Made by a program: the position numbers and the translations under genes
Assembly: GCA_963749415.1 (NCBI GenBank)
Contig: CAVVMG010000001.1
Coordinates: 1,486,765 to 1,550,764, forward strand
Direction: 5' to 3'
Origin: an uncultured Acidobacteriota bacterium
GTDB lineage: Bacteria; Actinomycetota; Acidimicrobiia; Spongiisociales; ZC4RG35
DNA: 64,000 nt
The notes under the pieces: generated by a model
What the model was told of the DNA's origin: nothing
The model's input: only the letters and a program-made list of their open reading frames with translations
Databases searched by the model: none
In this document: piece by piece, positions 21,289 to 53,289 of the stretch
Layout of the letters: each line of letters starts with the position of its first letter
Position numbering within the stretch: the first letter of the stretch is position 1

Positions 21289-21289
21289 C

Positions 21290-22366: not shown

Positions 22367-22944
22367 TGGTCACCACCCGCAACAGCCGTGTCGACGTAGT
22401 CACCGCCGCCGGGCGCCTCTTCGCGGAGCGCGGCTATCAGGGGACGTCGATGCGGGACCTGGGCCGGGAGCTCGGGCTACTCGGGTCGTCCCTCTATGCC
22501 CATGTCGAGTCGAAGCAGGATCTGCTGGTCGAGGTGGTCGAAGAGGGATCCCGGCTGTTTCGCGCCTCTGCCGAGAGCGCGATGGCCGAGGGCGGGTCTC
22601 CTTCCGTCCGGCTGGCGCGGCTCATCGCCGGCCACGTGGGTGTGGTGCTGGCGAATCCCGATGTGGTGCGGACCTTCCTCAACGAGGCAAGGATGCTGGA
22701 TGACGCCCACCGCCGTCGGGTGATCGCAGCCCGCGACTCCTACGAGGCCGTTTTTCGACAGGTGGTCGGCGCCGGTGTGTCCGACGGCTCGTTCCGTCCC
22801 GATGCGGACCCCAAGTTGAGCTCGATCTTCGTCCTCTCGGTTCTGAACGCGATCGAGCGCTGGTACCGGTCCGACGGGGATGTCGGGCCCGACGACCTGG
22901 TCGCTCGCCTGACCGGGTTCCTCCTGGCCGCGCTCAGACGCTGA
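22366..22944 (+). CDS. paaR: TetR-family transcriptional regulator coupled to the 3' end of the paa operon (PaaR-like)
   Basis: 193 aa with an N-terminal TetR HTH (AGRLFAERGYQGTSMRDLGRELGLLGSSLYAHVESKQDLL). ATG overlaps the paaE stop (TGATG). Confidence 0.8.
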   Translation: MVTTRNSRVDVVTAAGRLFAERGYQGTSMRDLGRELGLLGSSLYAHVESKQDLLVEVVEEGSRLFRASAESAMAEGGSPSVRLARLIAGHVGVVLANPDVVRTFLNEARMLDDAHRRRVIAARDSYEAVFRQVVGAGVSDGSFRPDADPKLSSIFVLSVLNAIERWYRSDGDVGPDDLVARLTGFLLAALRR

Positions 22945-24329
22945 CGGTTTCGCTCTCGGGCACGGGGGCCCGCTGCCGTATCTCGGAGGCCAGCCAGAGG
23001 TAGAGCGCCAGGAGGGCGCCAACCACCAACATCAAGATCAGGCTCAGATCGGGGACGTACAGCGCAACCACAGCGATGACCACGCCGACCACCCGGACCA
23101 GGTCGTAGTGGTTCGATACCCAGCTGCTGAAACCACCACCTTGTCCGGGCTCCATCTGCGCATCCCACCACGCCTTCAATCTCATCGCCCACGCCGGGCG
23201 CCCCGTGAGGTAGACGGCGAATCCGATGACCGCGGCCCCGAGCGCGAGCCACAGCATCACCTGCCGCAGGCCAGAGGCAACGTCATACAGCAGACCGATT
23301 GCGATCCGATCACCTGCGGGGTTGGTCACCGCTGCGACCACTTGCTGTTCGATCCAGCGCAACAGGGCCTCCGTGATCGGCACTCCGATGATGATCCCGA
23401 TCGCGAGCTGGATTGCCGTTCTGCGCCTGGTTCTGGATACCCAAAGCGTCACCACGATGAGGAGCAGCGAGAAGATCGCAAGTGCCCAGACCGCCCGGTC
23501 GAGCATGACGACCCCGTTCTGGAGCTCGCTGAGCCGATCCTCGGACATGATGGTCACCTGGCCGAAGTCCTCCGGAAGGCTGGCACCGATCGCTGTCTCC
23601 AGTTGTGCCCGCGCTTCCTCGACGCGCTCCGACACCGCGCTCGGGGAGGGTGATATCGGGGCCGATCCCGCTGAGGTCGGGGAGCACTCGTCTGATCGCC
23701 TCGACGATGATCGGGATCGTGTTGAGGCTTACTTCTCCGTTCTCGACAGAGACGTTGGGGACCTCGGAGAGCTCGTTTCGCAGCAATGCCACGATCCTCT
23801 GATGGGCTGCGCGGACCAGCGGGGGGATCCGCTCCTGGAAGTCGGCTGATTGCACGAACCCGTCGATGCGAGCGGTGATCCTTTCTTCGAGCCCGGAGCT
23901 CAGGGTGGGAGCGAGGTTCTCCAGGGAGGGACGGTCGAAGGAATCGAGGATTTGCTGTCCCCGGTCGCCGATCTCCAGCGCGTCGACCAAAGCGGTGAAC
24001 AGGAAGTCATCGAGTTGGGTCAGTGCGGCGCTGATTCGGGTCTCGAGGTCCAGGGCATCGAGCACCTCGGTGGTGACGCGATCTCCAAGTGCGACATACA
24101 GGTCCGGGTCCTCGAGTGTCGGCCCGACTGCCTGCATGAATGCATCCGTGTCCAACAGCGTGTCCTCGACCCAGAATGCGATCGATGTCAGCACGATGCT
24201 GAGGGAGGTGATGACCACCAGCAGGAAGGTCAGGATCCTCCGAGCCCGCCCGGGCGACTCCGATGCGTTCACGTCGGCCGGCGAACCGGGCTCGGGAGCC
24301 TGGGGCTCTTCGCTGTTTGTCATCGGCAC
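22934..24329 (-). pseudogene. Integral membrane protein gene split by an apparent single-nucleotide frameshift near 23635-23645 (N-terminal TM helix plus ~200-aa extracytoplasmic domain, then a multi-TM C-terminal half). Either a pseudogene or a sequencing indel.
   Basis: Frame A (24329->~23640) reads a plausible protein ...IVEAIRRVLPDLSGIGPDITLPE and then degenerates into Arg/Gly-rich nonsense until 23310. Frame B begins exactly there (GTG 23635, VSERVEEARAQLETAIGASLPEDFG...) and continues as a multi-TM protein to 22934. The frames are offset by 1 nt. Confidence 0.5.
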
Positions 24330-24491
24330 TCGCTTTCAGATCTCTGGGTAGCGACTCTACGTGCCGGTGTGCTCGGGTGATTCACACAAAGCGAGTGATG
24401 CCGGGTTCGTCACATGTCCCGACAATCGATAGAAGAGGAGCCAATTTGTGTAGGTTGATCCCTTCGGACATCGGACAGGAAAGGATCAGCA

Positions 24492-24908
24492 ATGTCGCAT
24501 TCATCGGGTGGCAGTTACGACAGCCCTCCCGGGTTGGCGATCGGGGCGATCATGTTCGCCGGGATCATGATGGCGATGAGCGGGATCTTCTCCGCCATCT
24601 CCGGCCTCTTCGCCCTGGTCAAGGACGATTTCTATGTGGCCTTGCCCAACTACATAGTCGAGATCGACCCCACCACCTGGGGGTATATCCATCTCGGCCT
24701 GGGGATCCTGGTCGCCTTCGCCGGGTTCGCGGTGATCAGTGGTGCGACCTGGGCCCGCGTGATCGGGATCATCCTCGCCGTGGTCAGCGCCATCGCCAAC
24801 TTCGGGTTCATCCCCTACTACCCCATATGGTCGATCATCGTGATCGCCATCGACGTCATCGTGATCTGGGCCCTGGCCGTCCATGGCCGGGCCATGTCGA
24901 CCGCCTGA
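24492..24908 (+). CDS. Small integral membrane protein (four TM segments; possibly DUF308/HdeD-like)
   Basis: 138 aa hydrophobic protein with a good SD (AGGAAAGGA) 7 nt upstream of the ATG. Family call is weak. Confidence 0.55.
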   Translation: MSHSSGGSYDSPPGLAIGAIMFAGIMMAMSGIFSAISGLFALVKDDFYVALPNYIVEIDPTTWGYIHLGLGILVAFAGFAVISGATWARVIGIILAVVSAIANFGFIPYYPIWSIIVIAIDVIVIWALAVHGRAMSTA

Positions 24909-24951
24909 CTCTCTGAGAAATCGATCAGGGGGCGCCTCGGCGCCCCCTGAT

Positions 24952-26013: not shown

Positions 26014-27887
26014 TTGATCATCTCCAGGATCTTCTCTTCTATCTCCGACACCTTGAATGGCTCGCCGGCCACCTTGTTCAGGCCCTTGACGTCGATCAGG
26101 AACTCGGCGCGGATCACCCTTCGCAGCTGGCCGGTGTTGAGCTCGGGGATCAGGACCTGCTCGTAGGCACGAAGCACGTCACCCAGGTTCGTGGGCAGGG
26201 GGTTGAGGTATTTCAAGTGCGCGGTGGCGACCTTCTTCCCTGCGAGCCGGACCCGTCGCGCCGCTGCCCGGATCGAGCCGTACGTCGATCCCCAGCCCAG
26301 CACCAGGATGGAGGCGTCCTCCTCCCCATTGACCTCCACCAATGGGATGTCGTTGGCGATGTTGGCCACCTTCCATGCCCGGGTGTCGGTCATCAACTGG
26401 TGGTTTGCCGGTTCATAGGAAACGTTGCCGGTGATCGCCTCCTTCTCCAGCCCGCCGATCCGATGCTCGAGACCGGCGGTCCCGGGCACCGCCCAGGGGC
26501 GGGCGAAGGTGTCGATGTCCCTCATGTAGGGGAGGAATGTCCCGTCGGGCCCGTTGGGGTACTTGGCGAACTCAACGGGGATCGGGGCCAGACTGTCGAC
26601 ATCGGGGATCTTCCATGGCTCCGAGCCGTTGGCGATCTGGTTGTCACTGAGCAGCAATACCGGCGTCATGTACTTGAGGGCGATCCGGGCGGCCTCCAGC
26701 GCCATCTCGAAGGCGTCGCTCGGCGAGGCGGCGGCGATCACCGGGATCGGAGACTCCCCATGCCGGCCGTATAGCGAGAAGAGCAGGTCGGACTGCTCCG
26801 GCTTGGTGGGGAGCCCGGTCGATGGGCCGCCCCGTTGGACGTTGATCACGATCAACGGGAGCTCGATCATGAACGCCAGTGAGATCGACTCGCTCTTGAG
26901 GGCGATTCCCGGGCCAGAGGATCCCGTGACCGCCAGATTGCCGGCGAAGGCGGCCCCGATGGCGGTGCCGACCCCCGCGATCTCGTCTTCCGCCTGGAAT
27001 GTCCGAACTCCGAAGTTCTTGTGGCGCGCCAGCTCGTGCAGGATGTCCGACGCCGGAGTGATCGGGTAGGTCCCGTAGAACAGGGGCAGCCCGGAGAGCT
27101 TCGATGCCGCGATCAGGCCCCAGGCCAGTGCCGAGTTCCCGTTGATGTTGGTGTAGGTCCCGGGCTCGAGTTTCGCCGGCTTCACCACGAATGTGGTCTT
27201 GGCTGCTTCTGTCGCCTCGCCGAGCGTGTATCCGGCCTGGAAGGCGGCAATGTTGGCGTTGGCCACCTCGGGCGTCTTCGCGAACTTCTTCCGCGCCCAT
27301 TCGATGGTGGGCTCGGTGGGCCGGTGGAAGAGCCAGGCGAGGAGCCCAAGGGCAAGGAAGTTCTTGGAGCGGAGGACGCTCCGCCCGCTGACACCGGTGT
27401 CCTTGACGGCTTCCTTGGTCAGCTCGTCCATGGGGACCTTGATCACCCGGAATCCGTCCAGCGCCCCGTCTTCCAGGGGGTTGGAGTCGTAGCCGGCCTT
27501 GTCGAGATTGCGCTCGTCGAAGGCGTCGGTGTTGACGATCAGAGTTCCGCCCTGACGCAGGTCCTTCAGGTTCTTCTTGAGCGCCGCCGGGTTCATCGCC
27601 ACCAGGCAGTCCGGTTGGTCCCCGGCAGTCAGGATGTCGAAGTCGGCGATCTGGACCTGGAAACTCGAAACTCCGGGAAGGGTCCCGGCGGGGGCCCGGA
27701 TCTCGGCAGGGAACGACGGCAGAGTCGCCAGGTCGTTCCCGAACAGGGCACTGGCGTCCGTGAATCTGGATCCGGCTACTTGCATTCCATCGCCGGAGTC
27801 TCCGGCGAATCTGATGACTAATTTGTCGAAGGTTTCGGTTGGGTTGGGTTCAGTGTCTGTTGTGGCAGTGACCTCGGCCACTTTCAC
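26010..27887 (-). CDS. korA: 2-oxoglutarate/2-oxoacid:ferredoxin oxidoreductase alpha subunit
   Basis: 625 aa KorA-like. GTG start preceded by AAGGAAG. Confidence 0.9.
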   Translation of the reverse strand: MKVAEVTATTDTEPNPTETFDKLVIRFAGDSGDGMQVAGSRFTDASALFGNDLATLPSFPAEIRAPAGTLPGVSSFQVQIADFDILTAGDQPDCLVAMNPAALKKNLKDLRQGGTLIVNTDAFDERNLDKAGYDSNPLEDGALDGFRVIKVPMDELTKEAVKDTGVSGRSVLRSKNFLALGLLAWLFHRPTEPTIEWARKKFAKTPEVANANIAAFQAGYTLGEATEAAKTTFVVKPAKLEPGTYTNINGNSALAWGLIAASKLSGLPLFYGTYPITPASDILHELARHKNFGVRTFQAEDEIAGVGTAIGAAFAGNLAVTGSSGPGIALKSESISLAFMIELPLIVINVQRGGPSTGLPTKPEQSDLLFSLYGRHGESPIPVIAAASPSDAFEMALEAARIALKYMTPVLLLSDNQIANGSEPWKIPDVDSLAPIPVEFAKYPNGPDGTFLPYMRDIDTFARPWAVPGTAGLEHRIGGLEKEAITGNVSYEPANHQLMTDTRAWKVANIANDIPLVEVNGEEDASILVLGWGSTYGSIRAAARRVRLAGKKVATAHLKYLNPLPTNLGDVLRAYEQVLIPELNTGQLRRVIRAEFLIDVKGLNKVAGEPFKVSEIEEKILEMIK

Positions 27888-27904
27888 TTCCTTGTTGGTT
27901 GTTA

Positions 27905-27920
27905 GAGCGCGCCTGCGCGC
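27905..27920. repeat. GC-rich inverted repeat AGCGCGC-CT-GCGCGCT between the amidase 3' end and the korA start
   Basis: 7-bp arms read directly from the sequence. No U-run follows on the minus strand. Confidence 0.3.
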
Positions 27921-27998
27921 TTGTCATTCAACACCAAGCTCGGTTGAGAACGACCGCATGTCGGTGGCTCGCTGGACCTATTTTATCGGCCGTCAGGG

Positions 27999-29297
27999 CT
28001 ACCCCGATCGCACGGTCGCGGGGGCGAACCCCACGAGGCCGCGCGACTCGAGTTCCCGGCCGAAGCCGATCAGTTCCACCTCGGATCCCAGCTTTCCGAT
28101 CGCCTGGAGGGAGGGTGCAGGCCCGGGCTCACCGCCGAGCGGCATGGCGATGGCGGGGTGCAGCGCGTGGTTCACGATCGATGTGAACCAGGAGAGGACT
28201 GTGCGGTAGTGGTGGCCCTCGATCATGTCCTCGCCGATCACTTTCCGAAGGGCGGGGACGGTCGGTGTGAGCAGGAGGTCCACGGTCTCGAAGGCGTCCG
28301 CGAACCGGTCCCGGATCATCAGCTGCCATTCCCGCCCCAGCGCCATCTGGTCGGGCGTCACCGCGCCGCAATCGAGGAGCCGGGCCCTGACCTCTTCGCC
28401 ATAGGGCAGGCCCGCCCCGAGATACCCCGCATGGACCGCGTTCACCTCCTCGGCGATGGCGAAGATCACCTCCCGCCCGGGGACCACGTCGGGCATGGTG
28501 ATCGGGTGTAGCACGTGGCCTAGGTCCGCCAGCTCGGCGATGACCCCGGTGAATGCCGCGTCCACGCCTCCATCCAGCGGCGCCTCGTCGTACCACGGCT
28601 GCGGTATGCCGATTCGGAGCCGGCCGGGGGCGGGCTCGGGCGTGAGATCACCTGACATCGCCCGATACGCGAGGTCGATCCCCTCCACGGAGTGGGCCAG
28701 AGGCCCCACGGTGTCGATCGAGGCGACGAGCGGGAAGACCCCCTCCAGAGGAATGCGACCCCAGGTGACCTTCAGGCCGTAGCAACCGCAAAGAGCCGCC
28801 GGCACCCGGACCGATCCACCGGTGTCGGTTCCGATCGCAATTGGCGTGAGCCCTGCACCAACCGCCGCCCCCGAGCCACCGGACGACCCGCCCGGGGAGG
28901 TCGCGGTGTCCCATGGGTTGAGGACCGGCCCGAAATGCGGGTTCTCGCTGGAGAACCCGAAGGCGAACTCGTGGAGCCCGGTGCGGCCCACGATGACTGC
29001 CCCCGCGTCCTCGAGTCGCTGCACCACAGGGGCCGACCCTGTAGCCATCACCCGGTAGAACGCCGACCCGCAGGTCGTGACCCGGTCTTCGTGGTCGACG
29101 AGGTCCTTGAGGCCGATCGGAGTCCCGGCAAGCGGGCCGGCGTAGCTGCCGCCCTCGATGACCCGATCAATGGCGCCGGCGCGGGCCAGTGCCCGCTCGT
29201 CATCGATCAGGATGAAGGCGTTGAGCTCGGCCTGTGAATCGTGGGCGAGCCTCAATGACTCGCCGACTCGATCTACGGCGGACACTCCGAACACCAC
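27999..29297 (-). CDS. Amidase-signature-family amidase
   Basis: 432 aa with the AS signature GGSSGGSGAAVGAGLTPIAIGTDTGGSVRVPAALCGCYGLKVTWGR and the catalytic Ser-cisSer-Lys context. Confidence 0.85.
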   Translation of the reverse strand: MVFGVSAVDRVGESLRLAHDSQAELNAFILIDDERALARAGAIDRVIEGGSYAGPLAGTPIGLKDLVDHEDRVTTCGSAFYRVMATGSAPVVQRLEDAGAVIVGRTGLHEFAFGFSSENPHFGPVLNPWDTATSPGGSSGGSGAAVGAGLTPIAIGTDTGGSVRVPAALCGCYGLKVTWGRIPLEGVFPLVASIDTVGPLAHSVEGIDLAYRAMSGDLTPEPAPGRLRIGIPQPWYDEAPLDGGVDAAFTGVIAELADLGHVLHPITMPDVVPGREVIFAIAEEVNAVHAGYLGAGLPYGEEVRARLLDCGAVTPDQMALGREWQLMIRDRFADAFETVDLLLTPTVPALRKVIGEDMIEGHHYRTVLSWFTSIVNHALHPAIAMPLGGEPGPAPSLQAIGKLGSEVELIGFGRELESRGLVGFAPATVRSG

Positions 29298-29329
29298 GTG
29301 AACTTAACGCCGGGGGTCCGAGCCCGGCC

Positions 29330-30370
29330 CTATTCGTAGCTGAGGCCTCCGGTGTCGGGCACCAATGAGATCCACACCTGTCCCGGCGGCACCGCGATCG
29401 TGTTGCCGTCGGCGTCGGTGAGGGTGTACCACTCAGTCTCCGCCTCCCGGGTCCACGTCCCCTCGACGACCTTGCCGTCGGCGAAGACCCAGGCGAGGCC
29501 GGAGCCGGTGGTGTGTGAGCTGGGCAACCCGTTGTTCGAGTACTGCTCGGACTCGAGCCCGATCAGCACCGGGAACCCGATGCGGCCCTCGGTGCCGTCC
29601 TCGTCTCGCCAACCCGACTCCCGCCCGTCCGCGGTGCGTAGCCAGGTCCGGGTGGTCGGATCCCATGTCCAGTCGACGTCGGTTCCCCGGAAATCGATGT
29701 GAACCGCGCTCACCGGCGCGGCGGTGGCGGGCATCCCCCCGAACTCCCAGATCGGGCCGGTGGGGGGCAGGTCCTGGAACTCCCTGGCGTCGGCATCGGC
29801 CCTGAGGCCGTCCGTCGTGGTGTACAGGTTGTGCGGTGCCCGCCGGAACCCGACCCGGAATGCCGCCGGGGTGGTTTCGGTGAGCAGGTTGATGTCCATG
29901 GACCGGATCATGTTCTGCACCCAGCCCTGGGCCCCGGAGATGGCGAAGGTCGGCTGGTTGAGGGCGGTGAGCAGCGTGGCGTCCGTCGGCCGGCCGGAGC
30001 GCATCGGTCCCAGGAACTCGGCGTCGGACTGCATCCACAATGTGAGGAACCTGGTGATCCCCTCGACCCGGATCTCGAAGACCGCGTCGGCCTTGTTGAC
30101 CCCGGAGTGGGGCCGGGCGTTCGGATGGTTGTCCAGCTTGACCGCGAGCAGTCGACGATTGAGGAGCGCGGGGTCGGTCACCGGGAGCCCGTTGATCGGT
30201 GAAAGCGCCGACGCCGTGGTGGTGGTGGTCCCCTGTTCGGTGGTCGTCGTCGCCAGGGTGGTGGTCGTTTCCGGTGTCGAAGTGGTCGTCGTGGTCCCGG
30301 TTCCCACCGCCGGAGAGCAGGCGGCCAGAGCCAGCGCGAGCACGATGAACCTATTGAGGGTTGAACGCAT
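29330..30370 (-). CDS. DUF3048-family lipoprotein (YerB-like)
   Basis: Lipoprotein signal LALALAACS, a Thr-rich linker, then LAVKLDNHPNARPHSGVNKADAVFEIRVEGITRFLTLW, which matches the DUF3048 core as I remember it. Confidence 0.6.
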   Translation of the reverse strand: MRSTLNRFIVLALALAACSPAVGTGTTTTTSTPETTTTLATTTTEQGTTTTTASALSPINGLPVTDPALLNRRLLAVKLDNHPNARPHSGVNKADAVFEIRVEGITRFLTLWMQSDAEFLGPMRSGRPTDATLLTALNQPTFAISGAQGWVQNMIRSMDINLLTETTPAAFRVGFRRAPHNLYTTTDGLRADADAREFQDLPPTGPIWEFGGMPATAAPVSAVHIDFRGTDVDWTWDPTTRTWLRTADGRESGWRDEDGTEGRIGFPVLIGLESEQYSNNGLPSSHTTGSGLAWVFADGKVVEGTWTREAETEWYTLTDADGNTIAVPPGQVWISLVPDTGGLSYE

Positions 30371-30396
30371 TGGCGGCAGGGTATCCCCGATCCCGC

Positions 30397-30798
30397 CTAA
30401 ACCGTTAGCACTCCCCCGGTGACTGCGAGGCTGGGCAGAGTCTCGTCGTGCTCGTCGAGCACCACCGCGAGCTCGATCCCATCCGAGTTGGAGCGAAGTA
30501 CATAGAGGGCATCGATGTTCACACCGGCATCGGCGATTGCCCTCGTCAGGCGGGCCAACTCCCCGGGACGATGGGGGAGATGGGCGGTGAGCACCATGTG
30601 CTCCTCGGATTGGAGTGCGGCCTCCTCGAGGACCCTTCTTGTCGTGGGCGCGTCATCGACGATCAATCGGACCGTGCCTTCCCCATTCGTGCCGTAGGCG
30701 GCGAGAGCCTCGATGTTGACACCGAACCCGGCGAGCGCCTCGGTGAGGGTGGCCAGGCGCCCGGGCCGATTCTCCATCTGGACCTCGAATTCGGTCAT
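30397..30798 (-). CDS. Tandem ACT-domain protein
   Basis: 133 aa with two ~65-aa ACT-like units (ENRPGRLATLTEALAGFGVNIEAL..., HRPGELARLTRAIADAGVNIDAL...). Confidence 0.7.
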   Translation of the reverse strand: MTEFEVQMENRPGRLATLTEALAGFGVNIEALAAYGTNGEGTVRLIVDDAPTTRRVLEEAALQSEEHMVLTAHLPHRPGELARLTRAIADAGVNIDALYVLRSNSDGIELAVVLDEHDETLPSLAVTGGVLTV

Positions 30799-30825
30799 GC
30801 TTCCGACTCTACGCCCCGTCGCGGG

Positions 30826-31474
30826 TCACGTGACCGGGAGCGCAGGCTCGGAGCGACCGCGCCTCGAGAGATACAGATGCCAGACCAGGCGCGCCGCCAC
30901 CGCCCGCACCGGTCGCCAGGGGGCGGAGACAATCTCCAGCTCTTCGGGCCCGGGGATCTGCTGAAGGCCAAGCGCTTCAGCGACTCCGACTTGGAGGGCA
31001 CGATCGCCGACGGGAAACGCGTCAGGGAGGAGCAAGGCGGAGAGCAGGTAGGCGTCGGCGGTCCAGGACCCGATCCCCCTCATCGCCAGCAACCGGGCCC
31101 GCGCCTCTTCCTCGTCCAGGCCCTGGAGGGCGGCGAGGTCGAGGGTGCCGGCCTCGACCGCCTCGCGCGAGCGAGACGAGGTATCCCGCCTTCTGCCTGG
31201 TGACCCCGATCGCGGTCAGCCCGGTCTCGCCGACCCGGAGCACGGAGCCGGGGGTCACCGCGCCCAGGAGCTCGATGAGCCGCCGGTACATGGCCGCTCC
31301 CGACTCGAGGGAGACCTGCTGCTCGAGGATGAGGAGCACCAGGGTGGGGAAACCCTGCGCTCGCTGCCAGAAGACCGGCAGCCCCCAGTCTTCGATGATC
31401 GAGTGCAAACCCGGGTCCTCGTCGCCCAGCATCCGCGCCGCTTCGACAAATGTGATGGCATCCAGGTGAGTCAC
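30826..31474 (-). pseudogene. AlkA-like HhH-GPD DNA glycosylase domain interrupted by a 1-nt frameshift near 31170-31180. In this sequence it is in frame with, and lacks a stop from, the upstream SodX peptidase.
   Basis: Frame A reads ...FPTLVLLILEQQVSLESGAAMYRRL...RQKAGYLVSLAR then nonsense. Frame C continues exactly at REAVEAGTLDLAALQGLDEEEARARLLAMRGIGSWTADAYLLSALLLPDAFPVGDRALQ, the HhH-GPD hallmark, and runs to the stop at 30826. There is an internal GTG at 31474 (VTHLDAITFVEAARMLGDEDP). Confidence 0.6.
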
Positions 31475-31771
31475 CCGCCGCCACAGATCCCGGATCGCCA
31501 CCGGCCCCAGGGTGCGGGAGTCGGCTGTGGTGACTGAGGCATTGTCCGAAAGCACCCACGCCTCGTCCGGGCCCAACCGCCGCTCGCCGATCGCCTCCCC
31601 GGGCCCGGCCGCCATCCGCTTCACCAGCCAGAAGTCCCCGCGCTCGGGATGAGGCAATGTCACAACCTCGCCGGCCTGGGGCTGGATGGAGTCGGTCGCG
31701 ACGAACTCGTCGCCCGGTAGGAGGGTCGGCAGCATCGAGGATTCGGCTACGCGAAACCGGCGCATGGGCAT
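31475..31771 (-). CDS. sodX: S26 signal-peptidase-family protease, SodX-like (NiSOD maturation peptidase). No in-frame stop before the downstream AlkA-like domain.
   Basis: S26 catalytic motifs SMLPTL (Ser), LVKRMAAGPGE (Lys) and SDNASVTTADSRTLGPV (GDNR-S-DSR box). Divergent from and adjacent to sodN. Start taken at MPMRRFRV (31771). Confidence 0.65.
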
Positions 31772-31823
31772 GGCCCCCCGAGGGTATGGTCGAAAACACA
31801 GACCGGACAACCAAGGAGTGTCA

Positions 31824-32231
31824 ATGCGCCGGGTAACCGTTGCCCATGCACACTGTGACCTGTTCTGCGGGGTCTATGACCCGGCCCAGGCCAAGATCGA
31901 GGCGATGTCGGTGCTCAAGATCGCCGAGAAGTACGCCGAGTCGAGCGACGATGTGTTCAAGGCTCGCGCCATCGCTCTCAAGGAAGAGCGAGCGGAGGAC
32001 GTCAAGCACCATCTGATGGTTCTCTGGGTCGACTTCTTCACCGCCGACCACCGCAAGGAGTTTCCCGACCTCGATGATCTCTTCTGGAGGGCGATCCATC
32101 AGGCCGGCGACGCCAAGAAGTCGGTTGATCCCGAAGACGGGAGGAAGCTGATCGAGCTCATCGATGAGATCGCCGACATCTTCTGGCAGACCGAGAAGGC
32201 GAAGGGGATGGGGGTCTACCCGCCCGCTTGA
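31824..32231 (+). CDS. sodN: Nickel-containing superoxide dismutase precursor (9-aa leader MRRVTVAHA then the Ni-hook)
   Basis: Mature N-terminus HCDLFCGVYDPAQAKIEA... matches NiSOD (HCDLPCGVYDPAQA) along its whole length (VKHHLMVLWVDFF, IDEIADIFWQTEKAKG). SD AAGGAG 6 nt upstream. Position 5 of the hook is Phe, not the usual Pro. Confidence 0.9.
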   Translation: MRRVTVAHAHCDLFCGVYDPAQAKIEAMSVLKIAEKYAESSDDVFKARAIALKEERAEDVKHHLMVLWVDFFTADHRKEFPDLDDLFWRAIHQAGDAKKSVDPEDGRKLIELIDEIADIFWQTEKAKGMGVYPPA

Positions 32232-32437
32232 TCGCTTTCTGGCTTCGACGCCGAATGGATGACCGAATCGACCCGTGTCTTCACCTTGCCCATGGCGTTC
32301 GCCGCCCATTCGTATTCAGGGGCGAGCAGGGCCAGGCCTCCCAGGATGGTGACGATCCCGGGCCCAGGTAGCACCAGCATCGCGGTGCCGGCTCCGAGGA
32401 GGGTGAAGCCTCCAGCAACACGCATTACCCGTGTCAT
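32216..32437 (-). CDS. PGPGW-motif small membrane protein (PF09656-like, 73 aa)
   Basis: MTRVMRVAGGFTLLGAGTAMLVLPGPGIVTILGGLALLAPEYEWAANAMGKVKTRV... This is the only protein-like part of the long Arg/Gly-rich ORF 32216-33325. 3' end overlaps sodN convergently by 16 nt. Confidence 0.6.
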   Translation of the reverse strand: MTRVMRVAGGFTLLGAGTAMLVLPGPGIVTILGGLALLAPEYEWAANAMGKVKTRVDSVIHSASKPESDQAGG

Positions 32438-32520
32438 GAGATCAAACCTACCCGCGGCCGGGGTTTGTGTGGATCGGGATTCACCCTCATTCGACCCCGA
32501 CGCCCGGACCGGCGTTTCAG

Positions 32521-34158
32521 TCAGTCGAGGGCGTCTGGCTCCAGCTTGGCGAACAGCGGCCGGACCTCCCCCAACGGTGCCCCGGCCTCGATCGGCGGGC
32601 GACGCCAGCCGTCGACCTCCACCGGGCCGCCCAGCATCGCCCCCACCACCGGGGTGGTGAACGGGAGATAAGGGGAAAGGGCGACCCTGATCCCCGAAAT
32701 TGCCTGGATGGCCGTCCATAGGATCGTCTCGGCACGTTCCCGGTCTTCCTTGACCAACTTCCATGGGGCGTTTGCGTTGAGGTAGACGTTCACTTCGGAC
32801 GCCGCATCCATCGCTGCCCGCAGGCCGGCGCGAAGCTCCACCTTTTCGATGTGAGAGCCGACGGCATTCAGCGCCGCATCGACCTTCACCAGCAGCTCGT
32901 CGTCGTCGGGCCGGAGCGCCGAAGGCGAGGGAACCTTGCCGTCGAAATTGGCCGCCGTCAATGACAGGACCCGGTTCACGAGGTTGCCCCAGGTGGCCAC
33001 CAGCTCGTCGTTCACCCTTCGGATGATCTCCTCGTCGCTGAGGTCGGTGTCGTTCTGCTCGGGGAGAATCGAGGCGATGGCGTAGCGCAGAGGGTCGGGT
33101 TCCATGCGCTCGGCGTACCACCCCATCGATCGCCCCACCCCACGACTGGCCGAGGCTTTCTCCGTGCCAAAGGTCACGTATTGGTTGGCAGGGACATCCG
33201 TGGGGAGATCGAGCCCCCCATAGCCCATGAGCATGCCGGGCCAGATCACCGTGTGAAACGGGATGTTGTCCTTGCCCACGAAGTAGTAGGACTCGGCGTC
33301 GGGATCTTCCCACCAGCGCCGCCATGCTTCGGGGTCGTCACCGAGTTGGGCCCACTCCTTGGCCGCCGACAGATAGCCGATCACCGCGTCGAACCAAACG
33401 TAGATCCGCTTCCCGGGACCCAGGTCGTCGACGGGGACCTCGACTCCCCATTCGATGTCACGGGTGATGGCACGATCAGGCAGGCCCTCGTTGACCATCC
33501 CCAACGCCCAATTCTTGACATGCCGGCGCCAGCCGGTTCGGGACTCCAGCCACTCGCGGAGCGGTTCTTGGAGCTTGGACAACAGCAGGAAGAAGTGCTC
33601 GGTGTCTCGAAGCACAGGAGCTGCGCCGCTGAGTCGGGAGCGGGGCTCGATGAGGTCGGTGGCGTCCAAAGTGCGCCCGCAGTTCTCGCACTGGTCGCCT
33701 CGGGCTTCCGGGTAGCCGCAGTGGGGGCAGGTGCCCTCCACGTAGCGATCGGGAAGGAATCGCTCGGCTTCCGGGTCAAAGAACTGGGCAGTGGTCCGCT
33801 TGGCGAGGTAGCCATGCTCGAGGAGGCGCAGGAAGACATCTTGGGTCACCGCGTGGTGGTTGGGGGTGCCGGTCGAGGTGTACAGGTCCCATGAGATCCC
33901 GAGGAGGTCCCAGTTCTCGAGGAATTCGGCGTGGTACCGATCCACGATCACCTGGGGCTCGACCCCCTCGTTGTCGGCGCGGACTGTGATCGGCGTCCCG
34001 TGCACATCTGATCCGGACACCATCAGCACCTGGTTGCCGGCGAGGCGGTGGTAACGGGCGAAGATGTCAGCAGGCAGATAGGCGCCGGCCAGGTGCCCGA
34101 GGTGTCGGGGTCCCGAGGCATACGGCCATGCGACGGCAACGAGGATGTGACGGGGCAT
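32521..34158 (-). CDS. metG: Methionine--tRNA ligase
   Basis: 545 aa with the HIGH motif (PYASGPRHLGHLAG), KMSKS-like VGKDNIPFHTVIWPG and Zn-knuckle cysteines CPHCG...CENCG. The ATG at 34158 gives a canonical N-terminus. The upstream 100 aa of the 647-aa ORF in the track are junk. Confidence 0.92.
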   Translation of the reverse strand: MPRHILVAVAWPYASGPRHLGHLAGAYLPADIFARYHRLAGNQVLMVSGSDVHGTPITVRADNEGVEPQVIVDRYHAEFLENWDLLGISWDLYTSTGTPNHHAVTQDVFLRLLEHGYLAKRTTAQFFDPEAERFLPDRYVEGTCPHCGYPEARGDQCENCGRTLDATDLIEPRSRLSGAAPVLRDTEHFFLLLSKLQEPLREWLESRTGWRRHVKNWALGMVNEGLPDRAITRDIEWGVEVPVDDLGPGKRIYVWFDAVIGYLSAAKEWAQLGDDPEAWRRWWEDPDAESYYFVGKDNIPFHTVIWPGMLMGYGGLDLPTDVPANQYVTFGTEKASASRGVGRSMGWYAERMEPDPLRYAIASILPEQNDTDLSDEEIIRRVNDELVATWGNLVNRVLSLTAANFDGKVPSPSALRPDDDELLVKVDAALNAVGSHIEKVELRAGLRAAMDAASEVNVYLNANAPWKLVKEDRERAETILWTAIQAISGIRVALSPYLPFTTPVVGAMLGGPVEVDGWRRPPIEAGAPLGEVRPLFAKLEPDALD

Positions 34159-34196
34159 CGTGGTTGAGGGTAACGAGGGGGTGCCCACACCGATTC

Positions 34197-35105
34197 CTAT
34201 TGGGCGGTCACGATCCCAGGCTCGGGAACGTGCTTGGTCGCCCGCTCGGTGAGGATCACGCCGCCCACGATCAGCGCCGCACCGGCCAGGACGGTGAGGG
34301 TGATGGTCTCGCCGAGGAAGATCACTGCCAGAGTCACCGCGACCACGGGCACCAAGTAGCCGGAGACTCCGAGCCGAGACGCGGGATTGATTTCCGCCGC
34401 GATCAAGAAGGCGGTGAACGGCACTGCGGTGCCGAACGACCCGAGGATGGCGATCAGCGCCCACTGCGAGGGTTCGATCGACGAGACGGCGGTCTCCCCG
34501 AGAATGGGAAGGGCGACGAGGTAGACGAGCGTTGCGGTCGCGAACTGCGGTATGACCAGGCCCTCACCGCCCACCTCCAGCGCGAACTTGCGAGTCAGGG
34601 CCGACCCCACTCCGGCGAGGACGACTCCGATCAGTGCGACGCTCACTCCGCGGGCCAGGTTGTCGACGCCAGCCATGCTGGTGCCTCCGATGCCGACCAG
34701 GATCGCGGTCCCGAGGACCGAAACCAGCAGGCCGGGAGTCGACTTCGGGTTGAAGCGCTCGCCGGGGACGATGAAATGGGCGGAGACAATGGTGGTGAGG
34801 GGGATGAGGCCGATGAGCAGCCCGCCCAGGCTGACCGGGATGTCTTCGAGTGCCAGGGTCAGCAACGAGTTGGGGATGGTCATGGCGACGACCCCGAGGA
34901 TGATCCCCCGGCGCCAGTGCTCCCCGTCCAGGTCCCGAAGCTGCGCCCGGAATATCGCAACCACCAGGATTATGGAGAGGGCGATCCCGATCCGGAAGGG
35001 GAGCAGAGTGAAAGTGGAGATGCCGCTCTCGAGGATCGCTCTGGTGAGAACCGCCGAGGAGCCCCAGCCGAGAGTCGCCAGCACAAGGGGGGTCCATGGA
35101 TTCAT
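34197..35105 (-). CDS. EamA/DMT-family transporter (10 TM)
   Basis: 302 aa with two EamA-like repeats of ~140 aa, hydrophobic throughout. Confidence 0.8.
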   Translation of the reverse strand: MNPWTPLVLATLGWGSSAVLTRAILESGISTFTLLPFRIGIALSIILVVAIFRAQLRDLDGEHWRRGIILGVVAMTIPNSLLTLALEDIPVSLGGLLIGLIPLTTIVSAHFIVPGERFNPKSTPGLLVSVLGTAILVGIGGTSMAGVDNLARGVSVALIGVVLAGVGSALTRKFALEVGGEGLVIPQFATATLVYLVALPILGETAVSSIEPSQWALIAILGSFGTAVPFTAFLIAAEINPASRLGVSGYLVPVVAVTLAVIFLGETITLTVLAGAALIVGGVILTERATKHVPEPGIVTAQ

Positions 35106-35177
35106 GAGCCGGGCACGCTAACCGTGACCAGAGATGGGCTAAAAGATAAGTCCCGGCCCGCCGATAACCTGATCACC

Positions 35178-36236
35178 ATGAACAAGCGTCTTCTCGCTCT
35201 CGTTGCAGTGTGCACCCTGGCGGTCGCCGCCTGCGGCGACCCCGATCAGTCCGGTCCCACGACCCCGTTGGATGCTCCCGACGCCGCCCTCCTCGCCTAC
35301 TCGCTTGAGGCCGGTGACGAGTACCAATACGAGGTCGGGATCGACCAGCACATCGATGTCGAGGCCACCGGCGACTCGTCCGCGATGGGCGAAGAGCTTC
35401 CAGGCGCGGCCTCGGTCGACATCTCCGGAACGGGGACCTTCACTCACGCAGTGGCCGCGGGTCCGACGGAGGGGACCTACGAGATCCACATCACAGGTGA
35501 CTTCCAGGACCTCTCTGTGACCGGCACCGTTGACGGAGAGCCCGTGGACAGCAGCGAGGTCCCGGACTTCGCAGCTATGGAGCCGATCGACGCGACCGTC
35601 GTGGTCGACCAGCAGGGAAACATCGTCAGCGTCGACGGGGAGGAAGTCGAAGACCCGATGGCAGGCCTCTTTGGAGACCTTGGTTCGATGTCGACCCCAT
35701 CGGCACCCGGCCTCAATCCGGGCCAGTTCTTCGGCCCGTTGTTCTCCGATGAGGAGGTGACGGTGGGGGACACCTGGTCCGACGAAATCGAAACGCCGGG
35801 CCTCGTCGACGAGCCGATAGTCACCAGCGTCACCAACACGATCACCGGGGTGGAAGAGGTCGACGGCGCACAGGTCTACGTGATCGACACCGCCACCAGC
35901 ACCTCCCTCATCGAGATCGATCTCGCCGAATTCTTCCGCGGCATGTTCGGTGCGTTTGCACCCGAGGGCGCTACCGAGGAGCAGTCTGCCGAGTTCGAGG
36001 AGACCATGAGCCAGCTCCGATTCATGATGACCATCGACGACACCAGCTCCGAGGGCACGTCTCGATTCGACCCCGAAGCAGGCCTGGTCCGCTCCACCGA
36101 CATGGACTCAGGGTCACACATCACGATGGACATCCTGATTCCCGATGAGACGACCAACGAGATGGCCGGGTTCCAGATGGACATGACGCTCGATCAGCAG
36201 TTGACCTACCAGCTGCTCTCCGGGCCCAGCTCTTAA
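35178..36236 (+). CDS. Hypothetical acidic lipoprotein
   Basis: Signal and lipobox MNKRLLALVAVCTLAVAACG, then a ~330-aa very acidic (Asp/Glu/Thr-rich) domain with no recognised family. The first half of the 702-aa ORF in the track is antisense junk over the EamA gene. Confidence 0.6.
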   Translation: MNKRLLALVAVCTLAVAACGDPDQSGPTTPLDAPDAALLAYSLEAGDEYQYEVGIDQHIDVEATGDSSAMGEELPGAASVDISGTGTFTHAVAAGPTEGTYEIHITGDFQDLSVTGTVDGEPVDSSEVPDFAAMEPIDATVVVDQQGNIVSVDGEEVEDPMAGLFGDLGSMSTPSAPGLNPGQFFGPLFSDEEVTVGDTWSDEIETPGLVDEPIVTSVTNTITGVEEVDGAQVYVIDTATSTSLIEIDLAEFFRGMFGAFAPEGATEEQSAEFEETMSQLRFMMTIDDTSSEGTSRFDPEAGLVRSTDMDSGSHITMDILIPDETTNEMAGFQMDMTLDQQLTYQLLSGPSS

Positions 36237-36267
36237 GAGGAGTCTCTCCCGGCTGTACCATCCCAGG

Positions 36268-37221
36268 GTGACCCTGGCGCCTGCCCGTACCTCGATTCTG
36301 CCCGATCGGATCACCACTCCGACGCTGCGGTCGTTCCTCCGCTCCGTGCCCTCAGTCGATGAGGTAGGGGCCCAGGAGCGGGTCGCGGCCCTCTCCACGC
36401 GTTCGATCAAGAAGGAGTCGAAGCGGGTTGCCCTCGACTTGATCATCCGGATGATGGACCTGACCACCCTCGAGGGTAAGGACACCGCAGGGAAGGTCGC
36501 ACAGATGTCGGCAAAGGCAATCCGGCCCGATCCCACCGACCCCACGGTCCCGTCGGTGGCGGCGGTCTGCGTCTATCCGGCGATGGTCAAGTTCGCCTTG
36601 GAGGCCACCGAGGGCTCGACGGTGAAGGTGGCCAGCGTCGCCACCTACTTCCCCTCCGGGCTGGTCGACACCGACCTCAAGGTGGAGGAAGCCTCCCGGG
36701 TGGTGCGGTTGGGGGCCCATGAGGTGGACATGGTCATCGATCGTGGCGCTTTCCTCTCCGGCGAGTACTTCAAGGTCTTCGACGAGATCCGGAGGGTGAA
36801 GGACGCGTGTGGTGATGCCCATCTCAAGGTGATCCTGGAGACCGGGGAGCTGGTGGCCCTGGACAACGTCCGCCAGGCGTCGCTGCTGGCGATGGCTGCG
36901 GGAGCCGACTTCATAAAGACCTCGACCGGAAAGGTGCAGCCCGCGGCCACCCTGCCGGTGACTCTGGTCATGTTGGAGGCGATCCGGGACTTCATGGACG
37001 CCACCGGTGTCATGGTCGGGATGAAGCCGGCCGGTGGCATCAGAACGGCGAAGGACGCCATTCGCTATCTGGTGCTCCTCAATGAGACCCTCGGTGAGGA
37101 CTGGATGACCCCGGACTGGTTCCGGCTCGGAGCCTCGACCCTGCTCAACGACGTCTTGATGCAGATCCGCTGGCTGGAAACCGGCCGCTACTCGTCACCC
37201 GACTATTTCACCAAGGACTGA
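36268..37221 (+). CDS. deoC: Deoxyribose-phosphate aldolase (long form)
   Basis: DeoC motifs including MDLTTLEG, AAVCVYPAMV, the Schiff-base Lys region GADFIKTSTGK and VASVATYFPSG. GTG start. Confidence 0.85.
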   Translation: MTLAPARTSILPDRITTPTLRSFLRSVPSVDEVGAQERVAALSTRSIKKESKRVALDLIIRMMDLTTLEGKDTAGKVAQMSAKAIRPDPTDPTVPSVAAVCVYPAMVKFALEATEGSTVKVASVATYFPSGLVDTDLKVEEASRVVRLGAHEVDMVIDRGAFLSGEYFKVFDEIRRVKDACGDAHLKVILETGELVALDNVRQASLLAMAAGADFIKTSTGKVQPAATLPVTLVMLEAIRDFMDATGVMVGMKPAGGIRTAKDAIRYLVLLNETLGEDWMTPDWFRLGASTLLNDVLMQIRWLETGRYSSPDYFTKD

Positions 37222-42997: not shown

Positions 42998-43001
42998 TGC
43001 G

Positions 43002-43878
43002 ATGGAGTCTGATGTCATCCCGGTCACTGTTCCGCTCGACCTGAGGCGGGCCCTGCGGCCGCTCCACGGCTGGTTCGCAAAGGACGGCTGGTGGAAGACC
43101 GCGAGGACACCTGAGGGCAGCGGCTCCCTTCGCATCTCCCGCACCACCCAGGGGTTGGTGGGGCACGCCTGGGGCGACGGCAGCAATTGGCTGCTCGCCC
43201 GGCTTGGTTCGTTTGCCGGCCTCGACGACGACCCGACCCGGTTCGAGACCGATCATCCATTGGTCGGTGAGCTTCATCGCCTCCACCCCGGAATGCGCTT
43301 CGGAAAGAACGGCCTCGTCTTCGACGCCCTGGTCACTGCAATCACGGGCCAGAAGGTCACCGGCGCCGAGGCCGCTGCGGCGGGTGCCGGGCTGCGACGA
43401 GTTTTTGCCGACGATGCGCCGGGGCCCAATTCCGGGCTCCGCCTACCACCCGACCCCGACCGCATGGCGGCGGCCCCATATTGGGCCTACCACGAGCTGC
43501 ACCTGGAGCGGCGCCGGGCCGAGACGTTGCGCCGGGTCGCCGACCGACCATGCCGCCATCGGGATGCTGGGCGAGTTGCCGGTTGGCGAGGCCGCCGCCC
43601 GTCTCGCCGCGTATCCCGGAGTCGGGCCGTGGACGGTGGCCAAGACCCTGGTGGTGTCGCACGGCGATCCGGATCAGGTCGAGGTCGGCGACTTCCACGT
43701 CAAGCACATCGTGGTCCACCATCTGACGGGCCGGCCCCGTGGCTCCGACGAGGAGATGCTCGCACTTCTCGAGCCATTCCGCCCCCATCGGGGCCGGGTC
43801 ATCCGCCTGCTCCACACCCTCGGTCACGAGCCGAAGTTCGGTCCGAAGGTTCGGGCCCGGGACTTCACCCGAAGCTGA
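43002..43878 (+). pseudogene. Second AlkA-like HhH-GPD DNA glycosylase gene, frameshifted near 43530-43560
   Basis: Frame 1: MESDVIPVTVPLDLRRALRPLHG...NGLVFDALVTAITGQKVTGAEAAAAGAGLRRVF...HLERRRAETLRRVADRP then nonsense. Frame 2 continues AAIGMLGELPVGEAAARLAAYPGVGPWTVAKTLVV...GDFHVKHIVV... to the stop at 43878, which overlaps the P450 ATG. Frames offset by 1 nt. Confidence 0.6.
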
Positions 43879-46265: not shown

Positions 46266-46518
46266 TCCGAGATGATCCGGCCAGAGGAACCGAACCCGGT
46301 CGTAACTCGCCTCGCTCAGAACCTTCTCCTGTGGGACTCGATGGTTAGTGGCCCGCCGCAGAAATACTGGTGGCGTCTCTCCGGCCCTCGACGCCCCTGG
46401 CCGTGTCGAAGTGCTCGCCGCAGCTCCCCGGCTGCGACTGCGCGCTTCTCCTTGCCAGATGACGCCGATGGCTCGGAGACACCCTCACCCTATTTCTCCG
46501 ACAGACCACTCAGAAACA

Positions 46519-46536
46519 GTATCAACCCCTTGATAT
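46519..46536. promoter_or_regulatory. Inverted repeat GTATCAA-CCCC-TTGATAT 10 nt upstream of the GATase start codon
   Basis: 6/7 matching arms in the divergent intergenic region between the GS-like and GATase genes. Confidence 0.3.
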
Positions 46537-46545
46537 TCTCGCCCG

Positions 46546-47235: not shown

Positions 47236-47237
47236 GG

Positions 47238-48494: not shown

Positions 48495-48578
48495 GATCCT
48501 CTGCACCATGTGATCGTTAGGACGCCAACGATCGCGTTCGATTGCTACTTTTCCGGCGACCGGACCAGAGGAGGATCC

Positions 48579-51954: not shown

Positions 51955-52592
51955 TCGACCACGCCTTCGCCCTCGGCGAGCCCCCCCGCCGGGTTCCGGC
52001 CATCGAAGGCCGCCTCGAGGGCATCGGCCTTCTCGCCGCCGTAGGCCACCACGACGGTGAGCCGGGCTCGCCACAACAGGGGGAAGGTGGCGGTCAGCCG
52101 AACCTCGTCGATGCTCGGCACCTCGTTGGCCACGAACCACCGGCTCGACTCATCGAGGCCGGCGGTGCCCGGGAACAGAGAAGCGGTGTGCCCGTCACTC
52201 CCCATGCCGAGGATGACCAGGCTGGGCGGGCCTGATCCGTGCAATGAGCGGAGGTGAGCCTCGTAGTGGGCTGCGACATCGCCGGGCTCGAGGTATTCGC
52301 TCCACCGGGGACGGGCGAACCGTGCCCCAACGTGATCGAGGAGCGTCTCCGACACCATTCGCCCGTTGGAGCGCTCATGGTCCGGAGGTACCCAACGCTC
52401 GTCGGAAAGCCATGCGTCGACCCGGTCCCATCCGCTTGCTCGCCCCCGAAGCGCCCGGTACGCGGCCTCGGCCGCCGACCCTCCCGCCATTCCGATGGAC
52501 AGGCGATCGTCCGCTGTCGAGATCAGGGCCGCGACCCTGGCTGCTGCCCCCTCGGCGGCAGCTTCGGCAGTGTCGTGGACGAGCAGCTCCAT
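51915..52592 (-). CDS. pgl: 6-phosphogluconolactonase
   Basis: 225 aa with Pgl/DevB motifs (SIGMAGGS, DERWVP, LGMGSDGHTASLFPG). Confidence 0.85.
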   Translation of the reverse strand: MELLVHDTAEAAAEGAAARVAALISTADDRLSIGMAGGSAAEAAYRALRGRASGWDRVDAWLSDERWVPPDHERSNGRMVSETLLDHVGARFARPRWSEYLEPGDVAAHYEAHLRSLHGSGPPSLVILGMGSDGHTASLFPGTAGLDESSRWFVANEVPSIDEVRLTATFPLLWRARLTVVVAYGGEKADALEAAFDGRNPAGGLAEGEGVVEWYVDREAASLLA

Positions 52593-52620
52593 CTGTCAAC
52601 CGTACCCCTCATATACATTG

Positions 52621-53289
52621 GTGAACGTGGCGAAACAGGTGCGGATCGCATGGTCCGGGGGCGAAGTCGGCGGGATGATGACGGGCAGCGGGGGCGTGGG
52701 GATCCTGCTCGCCCATGGGGCCGGAACCGACCAAACCCATCGCTTCGTGGTCGGGTTGAGGGACGGGCTGGCGGAGCGCGGGCATCGCGTGCTGACCTTC
52801 AACTATCCATACACGGAGCGCGGGTCGAAGAGCCCGGACCGGCCGGAGCGGCTGTTGGCCTGCCATCGGGCGGCCGCCGACTTCCTGGATGCACAAGTCG
52901 AAACTCTGATACTCGCCGGGAGATCGATGGGAGGCCGGATGGGCACGCTCCTGGTCGCCGACGGCTATGAGGCGTCGGGTCTCGTCCTCTATTCCTACCC
53001 TCTTCACCCGGCAGGCAAGCCGGATGACCTTCGGATCGCCCACCTTCCCCGGATCACTGCCCCGATGCTGTTCTTTCAGGGGACCCGCGATGCCTTGAGC
53101 CGCATGGACCTTTTCGAGCGTCACATCTCGCCCCTCCCCAACGCGACCGTGGAGTTGCTAGAAGGTGCGAGCCACTCCTTCTCTGGTGGAGGCTGGACGG
53201 AGCAGGCACTCCTGGAGAAACTCGTGGATGGCACCACAGCATGGGTGGCCCGCCTCTCGTCTGGCAGAACCAGCCGCAGAGGGGCATAA
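52621..53289 (+). CDS. Alpha/beta-hydrolase-fold protein (dienelactone-hydrolase-like, KANL3/YjfP-type)
   Basis: LLAHGAG... and GRSMGGR (nucleophile elbow). Start ambiguous (GTG 52621, or ATG 52675). Confidence 0.7.
   Translation: MNVAKQVRIAWSGGEVGGMMTGSGGVGILLAHGAGTDQTHRFVVGLRDGLAERGHRVLTFNYPYTERGSKSPDRPERLLACHRAAADFLDAQVETLILAGRSMGGRMGTLLVADGYEASGLVLYSYPLHPAGKPDDLRIAHLPRITAPMLFFQGTRDALSRMDLFERHISPLPNATVELLEGASHSFSGGGWTEQALLEKLVDGTTAWVARLSSGRTSRRGA

Follow-up and report, generated by a model that had tools for sequence, protein, structure and literature searches.

Does a gene that reads without a stop from a peptidase domain into a DNA glycosylase domain record an accident in one genome, or a protein that its relatives also make? 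This question is raised by the minus-strand gene at 30826..31765 of a 64,000-nucleotide stretch of contig CAVVMG010000001.1 (the window), which comes from an uncultured bacterium placed by GTDB in the Acidimicrobiia. The first half of the gene resembles SodX, the maturation protease of nickel superoxide dismutase (NiSOD), and the second half resembles the HhH-GPD glycosylases of the AlkA type. The original prediction favored two ancestrally coupled genes, sodX and alkA, which a frame change had fused here, and named a genuine peptidase-glycosylase fusion as the alternative. We show that the fusion is ancestral and conserved and is not a lesion of this genome. With a probability of about 0.8, the gene is the form that sodX takes in a large clade of Acidimicrobiia, in which an S26 Ser/Lys peptidase runs without a linker into an AlkA/Mag-type glycosylase.

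The fusion in the window and in its relatives

In the window, the S26 peptidase domain and the beginning of the HhH-GPD glycosylase domain lie in a single frame within the open reading frame (ORF) 31022..31810 (minus strand; 262 amino acids [aa]), and no stop codon separates them. Both Pfam domains were found in this ORF, as the predicted read-through implies: Peptidase_S26 (PF10502) at aa 17-74 (E 7.8e-8; 32.9 bits against a cut-off of 22.9) and HhH-GPD (PF00730) at aa 160-216 (E 7.8e-8; 33.1 bits against a cut-off of 26.2). The NCBIfam model of the nickel-SOD maturation protease, TIGR02754, was matched at model positions 2-84 of 90 with 34.4 bits. The residues follow the order MPMRRFRVAESSMLPTLLPGDEF...VKR...LSDNASVTTADSR...LWRRVTHLDAITFVEAARML...GVTRQKAGYLVSLA and end in an Arg/Gly/Pro-rich tail. 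Of the predicted catalytic boxes, those of Ser and Lys were confirmed, and the one described as GDN is in fact SDN (LSDNASVTTADSR).

We searched 5.8 billion proteins with the repaired fusion of 315 aa, and more than 120 clusters (90% identity) were matched. The 120 listed matches covered 95-100% of the query at 56-87% identity and were 297-334 aa long, except for P0019, the window's own truncated product (247 aa), which was 100% identical over the 64% of the query that it covered. In the source databases they are called "S26 family signal peptidase" (NCBI) or "DNA-3-methyladenine glycosylase II" (JGI). A check of databases for S26-HhH-GPD fusions, proposed earlier, thus gave a clear answer, since PF00730 and PF10502 were both present in 118 of the 120 listed matches. 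Furthermore, when one genome per GTDB species was scanned, 578 of the 599 candidate stretches encoded a relative of the fusion. Each of the best 80 of these 578 matched query residues 1-315 in a single piece; most of the 80 are labelled as metagenome-assembled genomes of Acidimicrobiia or other Actinomycetota, and about a dozen carry labels of other phyla.

The best 80 stretches and a same-species contig (L081) made up a set of 81 loci (82 sequences in the residue-invariance count). In all 81, a fusion of ~312 aa is encoded by a single full-length ORF, which together with the protein clusters bears out the genuine fusion. Residues 85-125, which include the junction (...LW(P/R)RVTHLD..TF.EA), aligned without a gap in 81/81 relatives, down to 52% identity. 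Ser12, Lys51, Arg52 and Asp256 were invariant across the 81-locus alignment, and S12, M13, P15, K51 and R52 in the 82 sequences. In a further alignment (A1), where the repair has one additional residue and D257 corresponds to D256 elsewhere, G233, G235, W237, T238, A239 and D257 were invariant. The HhH GIG-WTA motif and the LILEQQVS and GVTRQK blocks, which are common to AlkA2-type enzymes, were likewise invariant in the fusion family. Finally, the ratio of nonsynonymous to synonymous substitution rates (dN/dS) between the window and relative L001 was 0.24 for the S26 part, 0.16 for the glycosylase part before the frameshift and 0.094 for the part after it. Values of 0.09-0.24 in all parts indicate that the fused frame is translated and under constraint throughout.

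These data bear directly on the idea of a translationally coupled gene pair, in which a sodX ending in TGA overlapped the GTG start of alkA until an indel fused them here, at a locus with two lesions. A TGA is indeed present at the junction (31469..31474; minus strand; codons GTG ACT for V100-T101 in the context ...LWRR-V100-T101-HLD...): it lies at 31473-31471, one base out of frame within GTG ACT. However, this off-frame TGA was found in only 11/81 relatives and was missing in 70/81, most of which read GTC ACC. It is therefore a by-product of codon choice in the GTG-ACT pair, and its interpretation as a relic sodX stop is ruled out. Standalone glycosylases begin at about the junction residue, which makes an ancient fusion of neighboring genes plausible for the clade as a whole; a fusion by frame change in this genome is contradicted by the same gap-free junction in every relative. 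In addition, the C terminus of the S26 domain aligns in the present frame to position 84-86 of the 90 positions of TIGR02754, the S26 part is evidently translated in this frame, given its dN/dS of 0.24, and none of five standalone-sodX loci has the split arrangement. Because many relatives carry the same fusion, the reading preferred in the original prediction fails, and we give it practically no credence.

How the two genes came together in the clade can be partly traced. In a protein library at 50% identity, the fused form was represented by one full-length sequence (P0150; 314 aa) and fragments, and this single representative marks the fusion as one tight subfamily. The other strong matches were standalone glycosylases of ~200-220 aa, whose own N terminus aligned at about query residue 100, and a few members of the glycosylase family with other N-terminal partners, namely GrpB (P0162) and STAS (P0168). 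Most likely, the fusion arose once, when the end of sodX was joined to the very start of a glycosylase gene. A split arrangement, with sodX followed by alkA, was not found at the loci of the standalone SodX proteins P0133, P0135 and P0148 (L082-L086), where no HhH-GPD gene follows. Nor was it found in the two standalone-glycosylase contexts inspected: the nearest standalone glycosylase gene (P0155) overlaps its upstream gene by GTGA and this upstream gene does not encode a peptidase, and for P0159 the contig is too short to judge. A search with the S26 part only returned 18 proteins and missed the fused family itself, so it was unusable for counting split versions.

With the extra base described below removed, the whole gene comprises 312 codons on the minus strand, from the conserved ATG at 31765 to the stop codon TGA at 30828-30826. 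An in-frame ATG at 31771 would give 314 codons, but the start kept in the relatives is the second ATG, at 31765. The SodX-type S26 domain (31475..31765; minus strand) comprises residues 3-99 (MPM numbering) and is matched by PF10502 and TIGR02754. Its active-site boxes, on the same strand, are Ser12 (31738-31736), Lys51 (31621-31619), the SDN box (31549-31541) and the DS box (31522-31517).

The peptidase half and its partner sodN

The name SodX is justified by the neighbor of the gene, which is sodN. This gene for the NiSOD precursor lies at 31824..32231 on the plus strand (PF09055, E 2.4e-37; TIGR02753, 126.7 bits). Divergent from the fusion and directly upstream of it, sodN was present in 80/80 loci scored, with ~50-60 bp between the start codons. 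The downstream neighbor, an ACT-domain gene (30397..30798 in the window; minus strand; PF01842, E 9e-18), was present in 77/80. All 60 fusion-family proteins tested matched TIGR02754 at model positions ~2-86 of 90, with a best E value of 2e-13. The nearest standalone homologues of the S26 part (42-52% identity; 107-156 aa) include several named nickel-type SOD maturation protease, and in 5/5 loci inspected (L082-L086) standalone SodX relatives were encoded head-to-head with a Sod_Ni gene. One point speaks against an assignment to SodX: with 34.4 bits in the window and 35.1 bits in its intact relative P0001, the S26 half stays under the curated TIGR02754 cut-off of 63.25, which is a classification threshold and not a biological feature. 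We therefore treat the S26 domain of the fusion as a putative divergent SodX subfamily.

The SodN precursors fit such a protease. S26 peptidases require small residues at positions -3 and -1, and cleavage of the NiSOD leader frees the amino group of His1 as a Ni ligand. In the window, SodN has a 9-residue leader, MRRVTVAHA, directly before the Ni-hook HCDLFCGVYDPA (31851-31886; SodN residues 10-21). SodN proteins of the fused clade have the leader MR(Q/R)VT(V/I)AHA followed by HCDL(Y/F)CGVYDPA, with AHA directly before His1. The maturation protease is stated to activate NiSOD via cleavage of the preprotein (PMC8346466). The Ni-hook HCDL(Y/F)CGVYDPA was found in 78/80 SodN N termini scored, and the canonical HCDLPCGVYDPA in the five standalone-sodX loci L082-L086. 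Given this split, the substitution of Pro5 by Tyr or Phe tracks fused sodX in this sample.

The divergent intergenic region of 58 bp (31766..31823) was compared in an alignment of 18 loci. It contains a strong Shine-Dalgarno sequence for sodN (AAGGAG on the sodN strand) and the nearly invariant 8-mer GACCATAC, in which GAC and ATAC were identical in 18/18 loci; two loci had GACAATAC. The 8-mer lies 12-20 nt before the start of the fusion gene; its sodN-strand sequence, GTATGGTC, contains TATGGT and resembles a -10 element, suggesting a putative role in a promoter. No Shine-Dalgarno sequence was detected for the fusion gene, and its mRNA may therefore be leaderless or have a very short leader.

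The glycosylase half and its extra base

The glycosylase half is of the AlkA/Mag type by sequence and by predicted structure. Among PDB sequences, the best matches were AlkA2 of Deinococcus radiodurans (2yg8; E 1.2e-22) and 2h56 of Bacillus halodurans (E 6.9e-22), followed by Mag2 and Mag1 of Schizosaccharomyces pombe, AlkA of Archaeoglobus and AlkA of Escherichia coli. In the intact representative P0150, PF00730 scored 51 bits. For the intact relative P0001, AlphaFold2 with a 60-sequence alignment gave a model with a mean predicted local distance difference test score (pLDDT) of 93.2 and a predicted template modelling score (pTM) of 0.89. In this model, residues 1-97 form an all-beta N-terminal domain, and a helical domain follows; for a chain of two domains, a pTM this high suggests that they are packed into one body. 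In a Foldseek comparison with the PDB, 2yg8 ranked first (E 4e-11; probability 1.00; target-normalized TM-score 0.80), and the top matches 2yg8, Mag2, Mag1 and 2h56 had target-normalized TM-scores of 0.75-0.83.

The invariant HhH motif and Asp suggest that this half has glycosylase activity. Two observations caution against this assignment. The top structural matches include structures titled glycosylase homolog Mag2, a protein that is not known to have glycosylase activity. Moreover, a conserved Asp is no guarantee of activity, and both the peptidase and the glycosylase activity are predictions from sequence. The HhH-GPD half could also be noncatalytic: it might tether the protein to DNA or the nucleoid, or provide the peptidase with a docking or regulatory module. 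The missing linker and the confident single-body model would fit such a role, as would the position of the fusion beside sodN in every locus and the Mag2 matches, which indicate that noncatalytic members of the fold may exist. The invariance of the catalytic Asp, the GIG-WTA motif and the LILEQQVS and GVTRQK blocks argues against it, however, and the strongest purifying selection acts on the very part that holds the active site. We consider a noncatalytic glycosylase half unlikely.

In the window, this half is interrupted. Its first part (T101-A202; 31166..31471; minus strand; PF00730) is in the peptidase frame. The rest (E203-T314; 30829..31164; minus strand) is out of frame with the gene start and includes the HhH motif LLAMRGIGSWTADAYLL (~31092-31042) and the catalytic Asp256 (31005-31003, in FPVGDRALQVG). 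Protein and DNA alignments place the break at 31165..31166 on the minus strand, where the window reads CTC GC[G] CGA GG and both L001 and L081 read CTC GCC GAG G. There is one extra nucleotide; which one within the CGCG run is ambiguous. The predicted frameshift inside the glycosylase is therefore real in the sequence, at 31165/31166 instead of ~31170-31180. All relatives read ...GYL(V/L)SLA-EAVE..., whereas the window frame breaks past Ala202 and continues through an out-of-frame tail (31022..31165; minus strand) of 47 Arg/Gly/Pro-rich codons, in which third-position G+C falls, to the stop codon at 31024-31022. The off-frame continuation, EAVEAGTLDL...LLAMRGIGSWTADAYLL...FPVGDRALQVG...RGRSEPALPVT, is found in ORF 30826..31092 and upstream thereof. 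Judged by these alignments, there is one lesion at the locus, a single extra base. The earlier description of the locus as doubly damaged or mis-sequenced was thus wrong in counting two lesions, and mis-sequencing is the more likely cause of the one that exists.

The truncated product (202 native residues and a nonsense tail of 45-47 residues; start at 31765) is identical to the deposited P0019 of 247 aa, showing that the extra base is present in the public assembly. P0019 keeps the peptidase and loses the HhH motif and the catalytic Asp. In the same 90%-identity cluster is the intact P0121 of 312 aa, whose contig L081 (ENA ERZ25039494) is 98.46% identical to window positions 20840-36707 (15.9 kb) and is free of the extra base. 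Past this base, the frame is open for 112 codons with the low dN/dS given above. When polarized with L001, 3 derived nonsynonymous changes were assigned to the window and 4 to L081; dN/dS between these two has too few differences to be decisive. Signs of relaxed constraint past the lesion, such as stops or an excess of nonsynonymous changes in the window lineage, were sought and not found.

Two further single-base insertions break genes in the window that are continuous in relatives. One, near 43543, splits a second AlkA-like gene (42987-43878; plus strand; 43002..43878) between two frames. This gene is intact in the same-species contig L089 and in >120 homologues (~291 aa; "DNA-3-methyladenine glycosylase 2 family protein"). 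The other is an extra C near 23638 (GAG[C]GCGG) in a gene for a membrane protein of ~460 aa (~22934-24335; minus strand; about 24320..22934), which is thereby split into the ORFs 23310..24335 and 22934..23728; in relative L091 (72% identical) the gene is one ORF of 463 codons. All three insertions are of a single base, none is in a homopolymer, and two create GCGCG. Such insertions look more like a consensus artifact than a natural indel spectrum, and the density of broken genes, three in 64 kb, is high.

We conclude that the extra base at 31165/31166 is probably an assembly or consensus error. A real and very recent mutation, leaving the strain with a SodX whose glycosylase half is crippled, is possible at rather less than even odds, and several observations pull in its direction. 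Both window-specific coding insertions in the ~29 kb of same-species comparison hit AlkA-type HhH-GPD glycosylase genes, a placement that by a post hoc estimate is ~0.3% likely if random, and the other three indels between the window and its relatives are intergenic, as expected of real polymorphism. The contig used for comparison, L081, is the noisier assembly, with two deletions in MetRS and an indel-dense stretch of ~700 bp. For the window against L081, the ratio of nonsynonymous to synonymous polymorphism (pN/pS) of the fusion is 0.59 and the median of its neighbors is near 0.1-0.2; the truncated product is also part of the deposited annotation. If the mutation is true and the insertion in 43002..43878 is also real, both AlkA-type glycosylases would be lost in the strain. 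Against a real mutation, the third +1 insertion falls in the unrelated membrane-protein gene and brings the count to at least three broken genes in 64 kb of an apparently compact genome, with a spectrum of nonhomopolymer single-base insertions that is odd for natural indels. The fully open and constrained frame past the insertion, with its 3 versus 4 derived changes, also speaks against it, and the tight packing of the modeled domains means that truncation might endanger SodN maturation. Programmed +1 ribosomal frameshifting at 31165, restoring the glycosylase frame, would explain the intact downstream frame and nothing else. All 81 relatives are continuous at the site and need no shift, no slippery or stop-codon context is known for CUC GCG CGA GGC, and the same-species contig does not have the extra base; we regard such recoding as extremely improbable. 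An error in the assembly remains our preferred explanation. Because isolated single-base insertions occur in the window assembly, a truncated gene in it should be called a pseudogene only when the reads support this.

Several further observations concern the two assemblies and the segment around the second AlkA-like gene. The upstream piece of that gene runs off-frame into the neighboring P450 gene, giving a spurious ORF of 680 aa. Where the membrane-protein gene breaks, the sequence of the same-species contig L081 is likewise broken or noisy. In L081, two bases are missing inside MetRS at 8849-8852 (window 32915-32919), which results in a chimeric 646-aa "MetRS-PGPGW" gene call; in the window, MetRS (34158..32521) is intact and is followed by a small PGPGW-domain gene ending at ~32216. 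Positions 17450-18225 of L081 are dense with single-base indels. The window segment 40518-46329 (GFO/FGGY/AlkA-like/P450/GlnA; ~5.8 kb) is 93.9% identical to L089 and the adjacent 46491-54047 (7.6 kb) is 99.1% identical, suggesting that the former is a recombined or strain-variable segment. GCGC was found within a few bases of 6/22 indel differences between the window and L081, compared to a background of ~8%; these small numbers are suggestive only, and the link could reflect a motif-linked consensus error. An ORF-based scan for frame switches, which used G+C at the third codon position (GC3) and an excess of G+C at the first over the second (GC1>GC2), also gave a candidate at 52336..53289, which was rejected as a normal gene end.

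Proposed function and known systems

From established knowledge of NiSOD, SodX and AlkA, the following roles can be proposed. The peptidase half would remove the 9-residue SodN leader, separating MRRVTVAHA from HCDLFCGVY after Ala-x-Ala, and would thereby free His1, whose amino group would help to bind Ni. The glycosylase half may be a monofunctional base-excision enzyme acting on alkylated or otherwise damaged purines. The fusion would then form one expression unit for superoxide defense and base-excision repair, served by a shared divergent promoter region. Whether the linker-free coupling is itself functional, and not a mere convenience of coexpression, is a more speculative matter. The single rigid body in the model, the constant pairing with sodN and the noncanonical Ni-hook (Pro5 to Tyr/Phe) point toward it. 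Maturation of SodN might, for example, be positioned or gated at the nucleoid by the glycosylase domain in its DNA-bound state; alternatively, the HhH-GPD domain might now act as a docking platform for the SodN precursor. We rate functional coupling as quite improbable.

Public databases already contain the fusion proteins, each under a name that hides one half, and the fusion is not a new kind of system. Pipelines that look for standalone sodX will score these Acidimicrobiia as having no NiSOD maturation protease. Beyond annotation, a stable fusion ties superoxide defense to base-excision repair in an abundant, mostly uncultured lineage of soil and water, and it comes together with the unusual Ni-hook HCDL-Y/F-CGVY. 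A SodX-glycosylase fusion was not found in the literature searched (full text; subscription journals mostly outside coverage), and the same literature yielded no mention of sodN in Acidimicrobiia.

SodX and the short AlkA-type glycosylases are each well known. Like the SodX of Streptomyces and marine cyanobacteria (TIGR02754; MEROPS S26), the fusion has a small soluble S26 domain with a Ser/Lys dyad (SM.P...VKR...SDN...DS) and is encoded head-to-head with sodN, the product of which carries a short leader ending in small residues before His1. It differs from SodX in that the protein of the fusion clade is never alone and runs directly into a glycosylase domain of ~215 aa, in that the two members shown score 34-35 bits against the TIGR02754 cut-off of 63.25, and in that position 5 of the Ni-hook, canonically Pro, is Tyr or Phe in the SodN of the fused clade.

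With the short 3-methyladenine DNA glycosylases II of the AlkA type, which do not have the AlkA N-terminal domain (AlkA2, 2yg8/2yg9; 2h56; Mag1, 3s6i), the second half shares the two-lobed helical HhH-GPD fold (target-normalized TM-score 0.75-0.83; ~30% identity to 2yg8), the HhH motif and the catalytic Asp. In standalone relatives of ~200-220 aa, the N terminus aligns to the fusion junction, but the glycosylase of the fusion is covalently preceded by a peptidase domain. The enzymes of the E. coli AlkA/Ogg1 type also carry an HhH-GPD core after an extra N-terminal, beta-rich domain of about 90-110 residues. That domain is nonenzymatic and of a different fold, whereas the N-terminal domain of the fusion is an S26 peptidase that has its catalytic residues and a genetic partner of its own, sodN. 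Finally, the GrpB-HhH-GPD (P0162) and STAS-HhH-GPD (P0168) proteins resemble the fusion in that this glycosylase family readily accepts N-terminal partners, and they differ from it in that their partner domains are other than S26.

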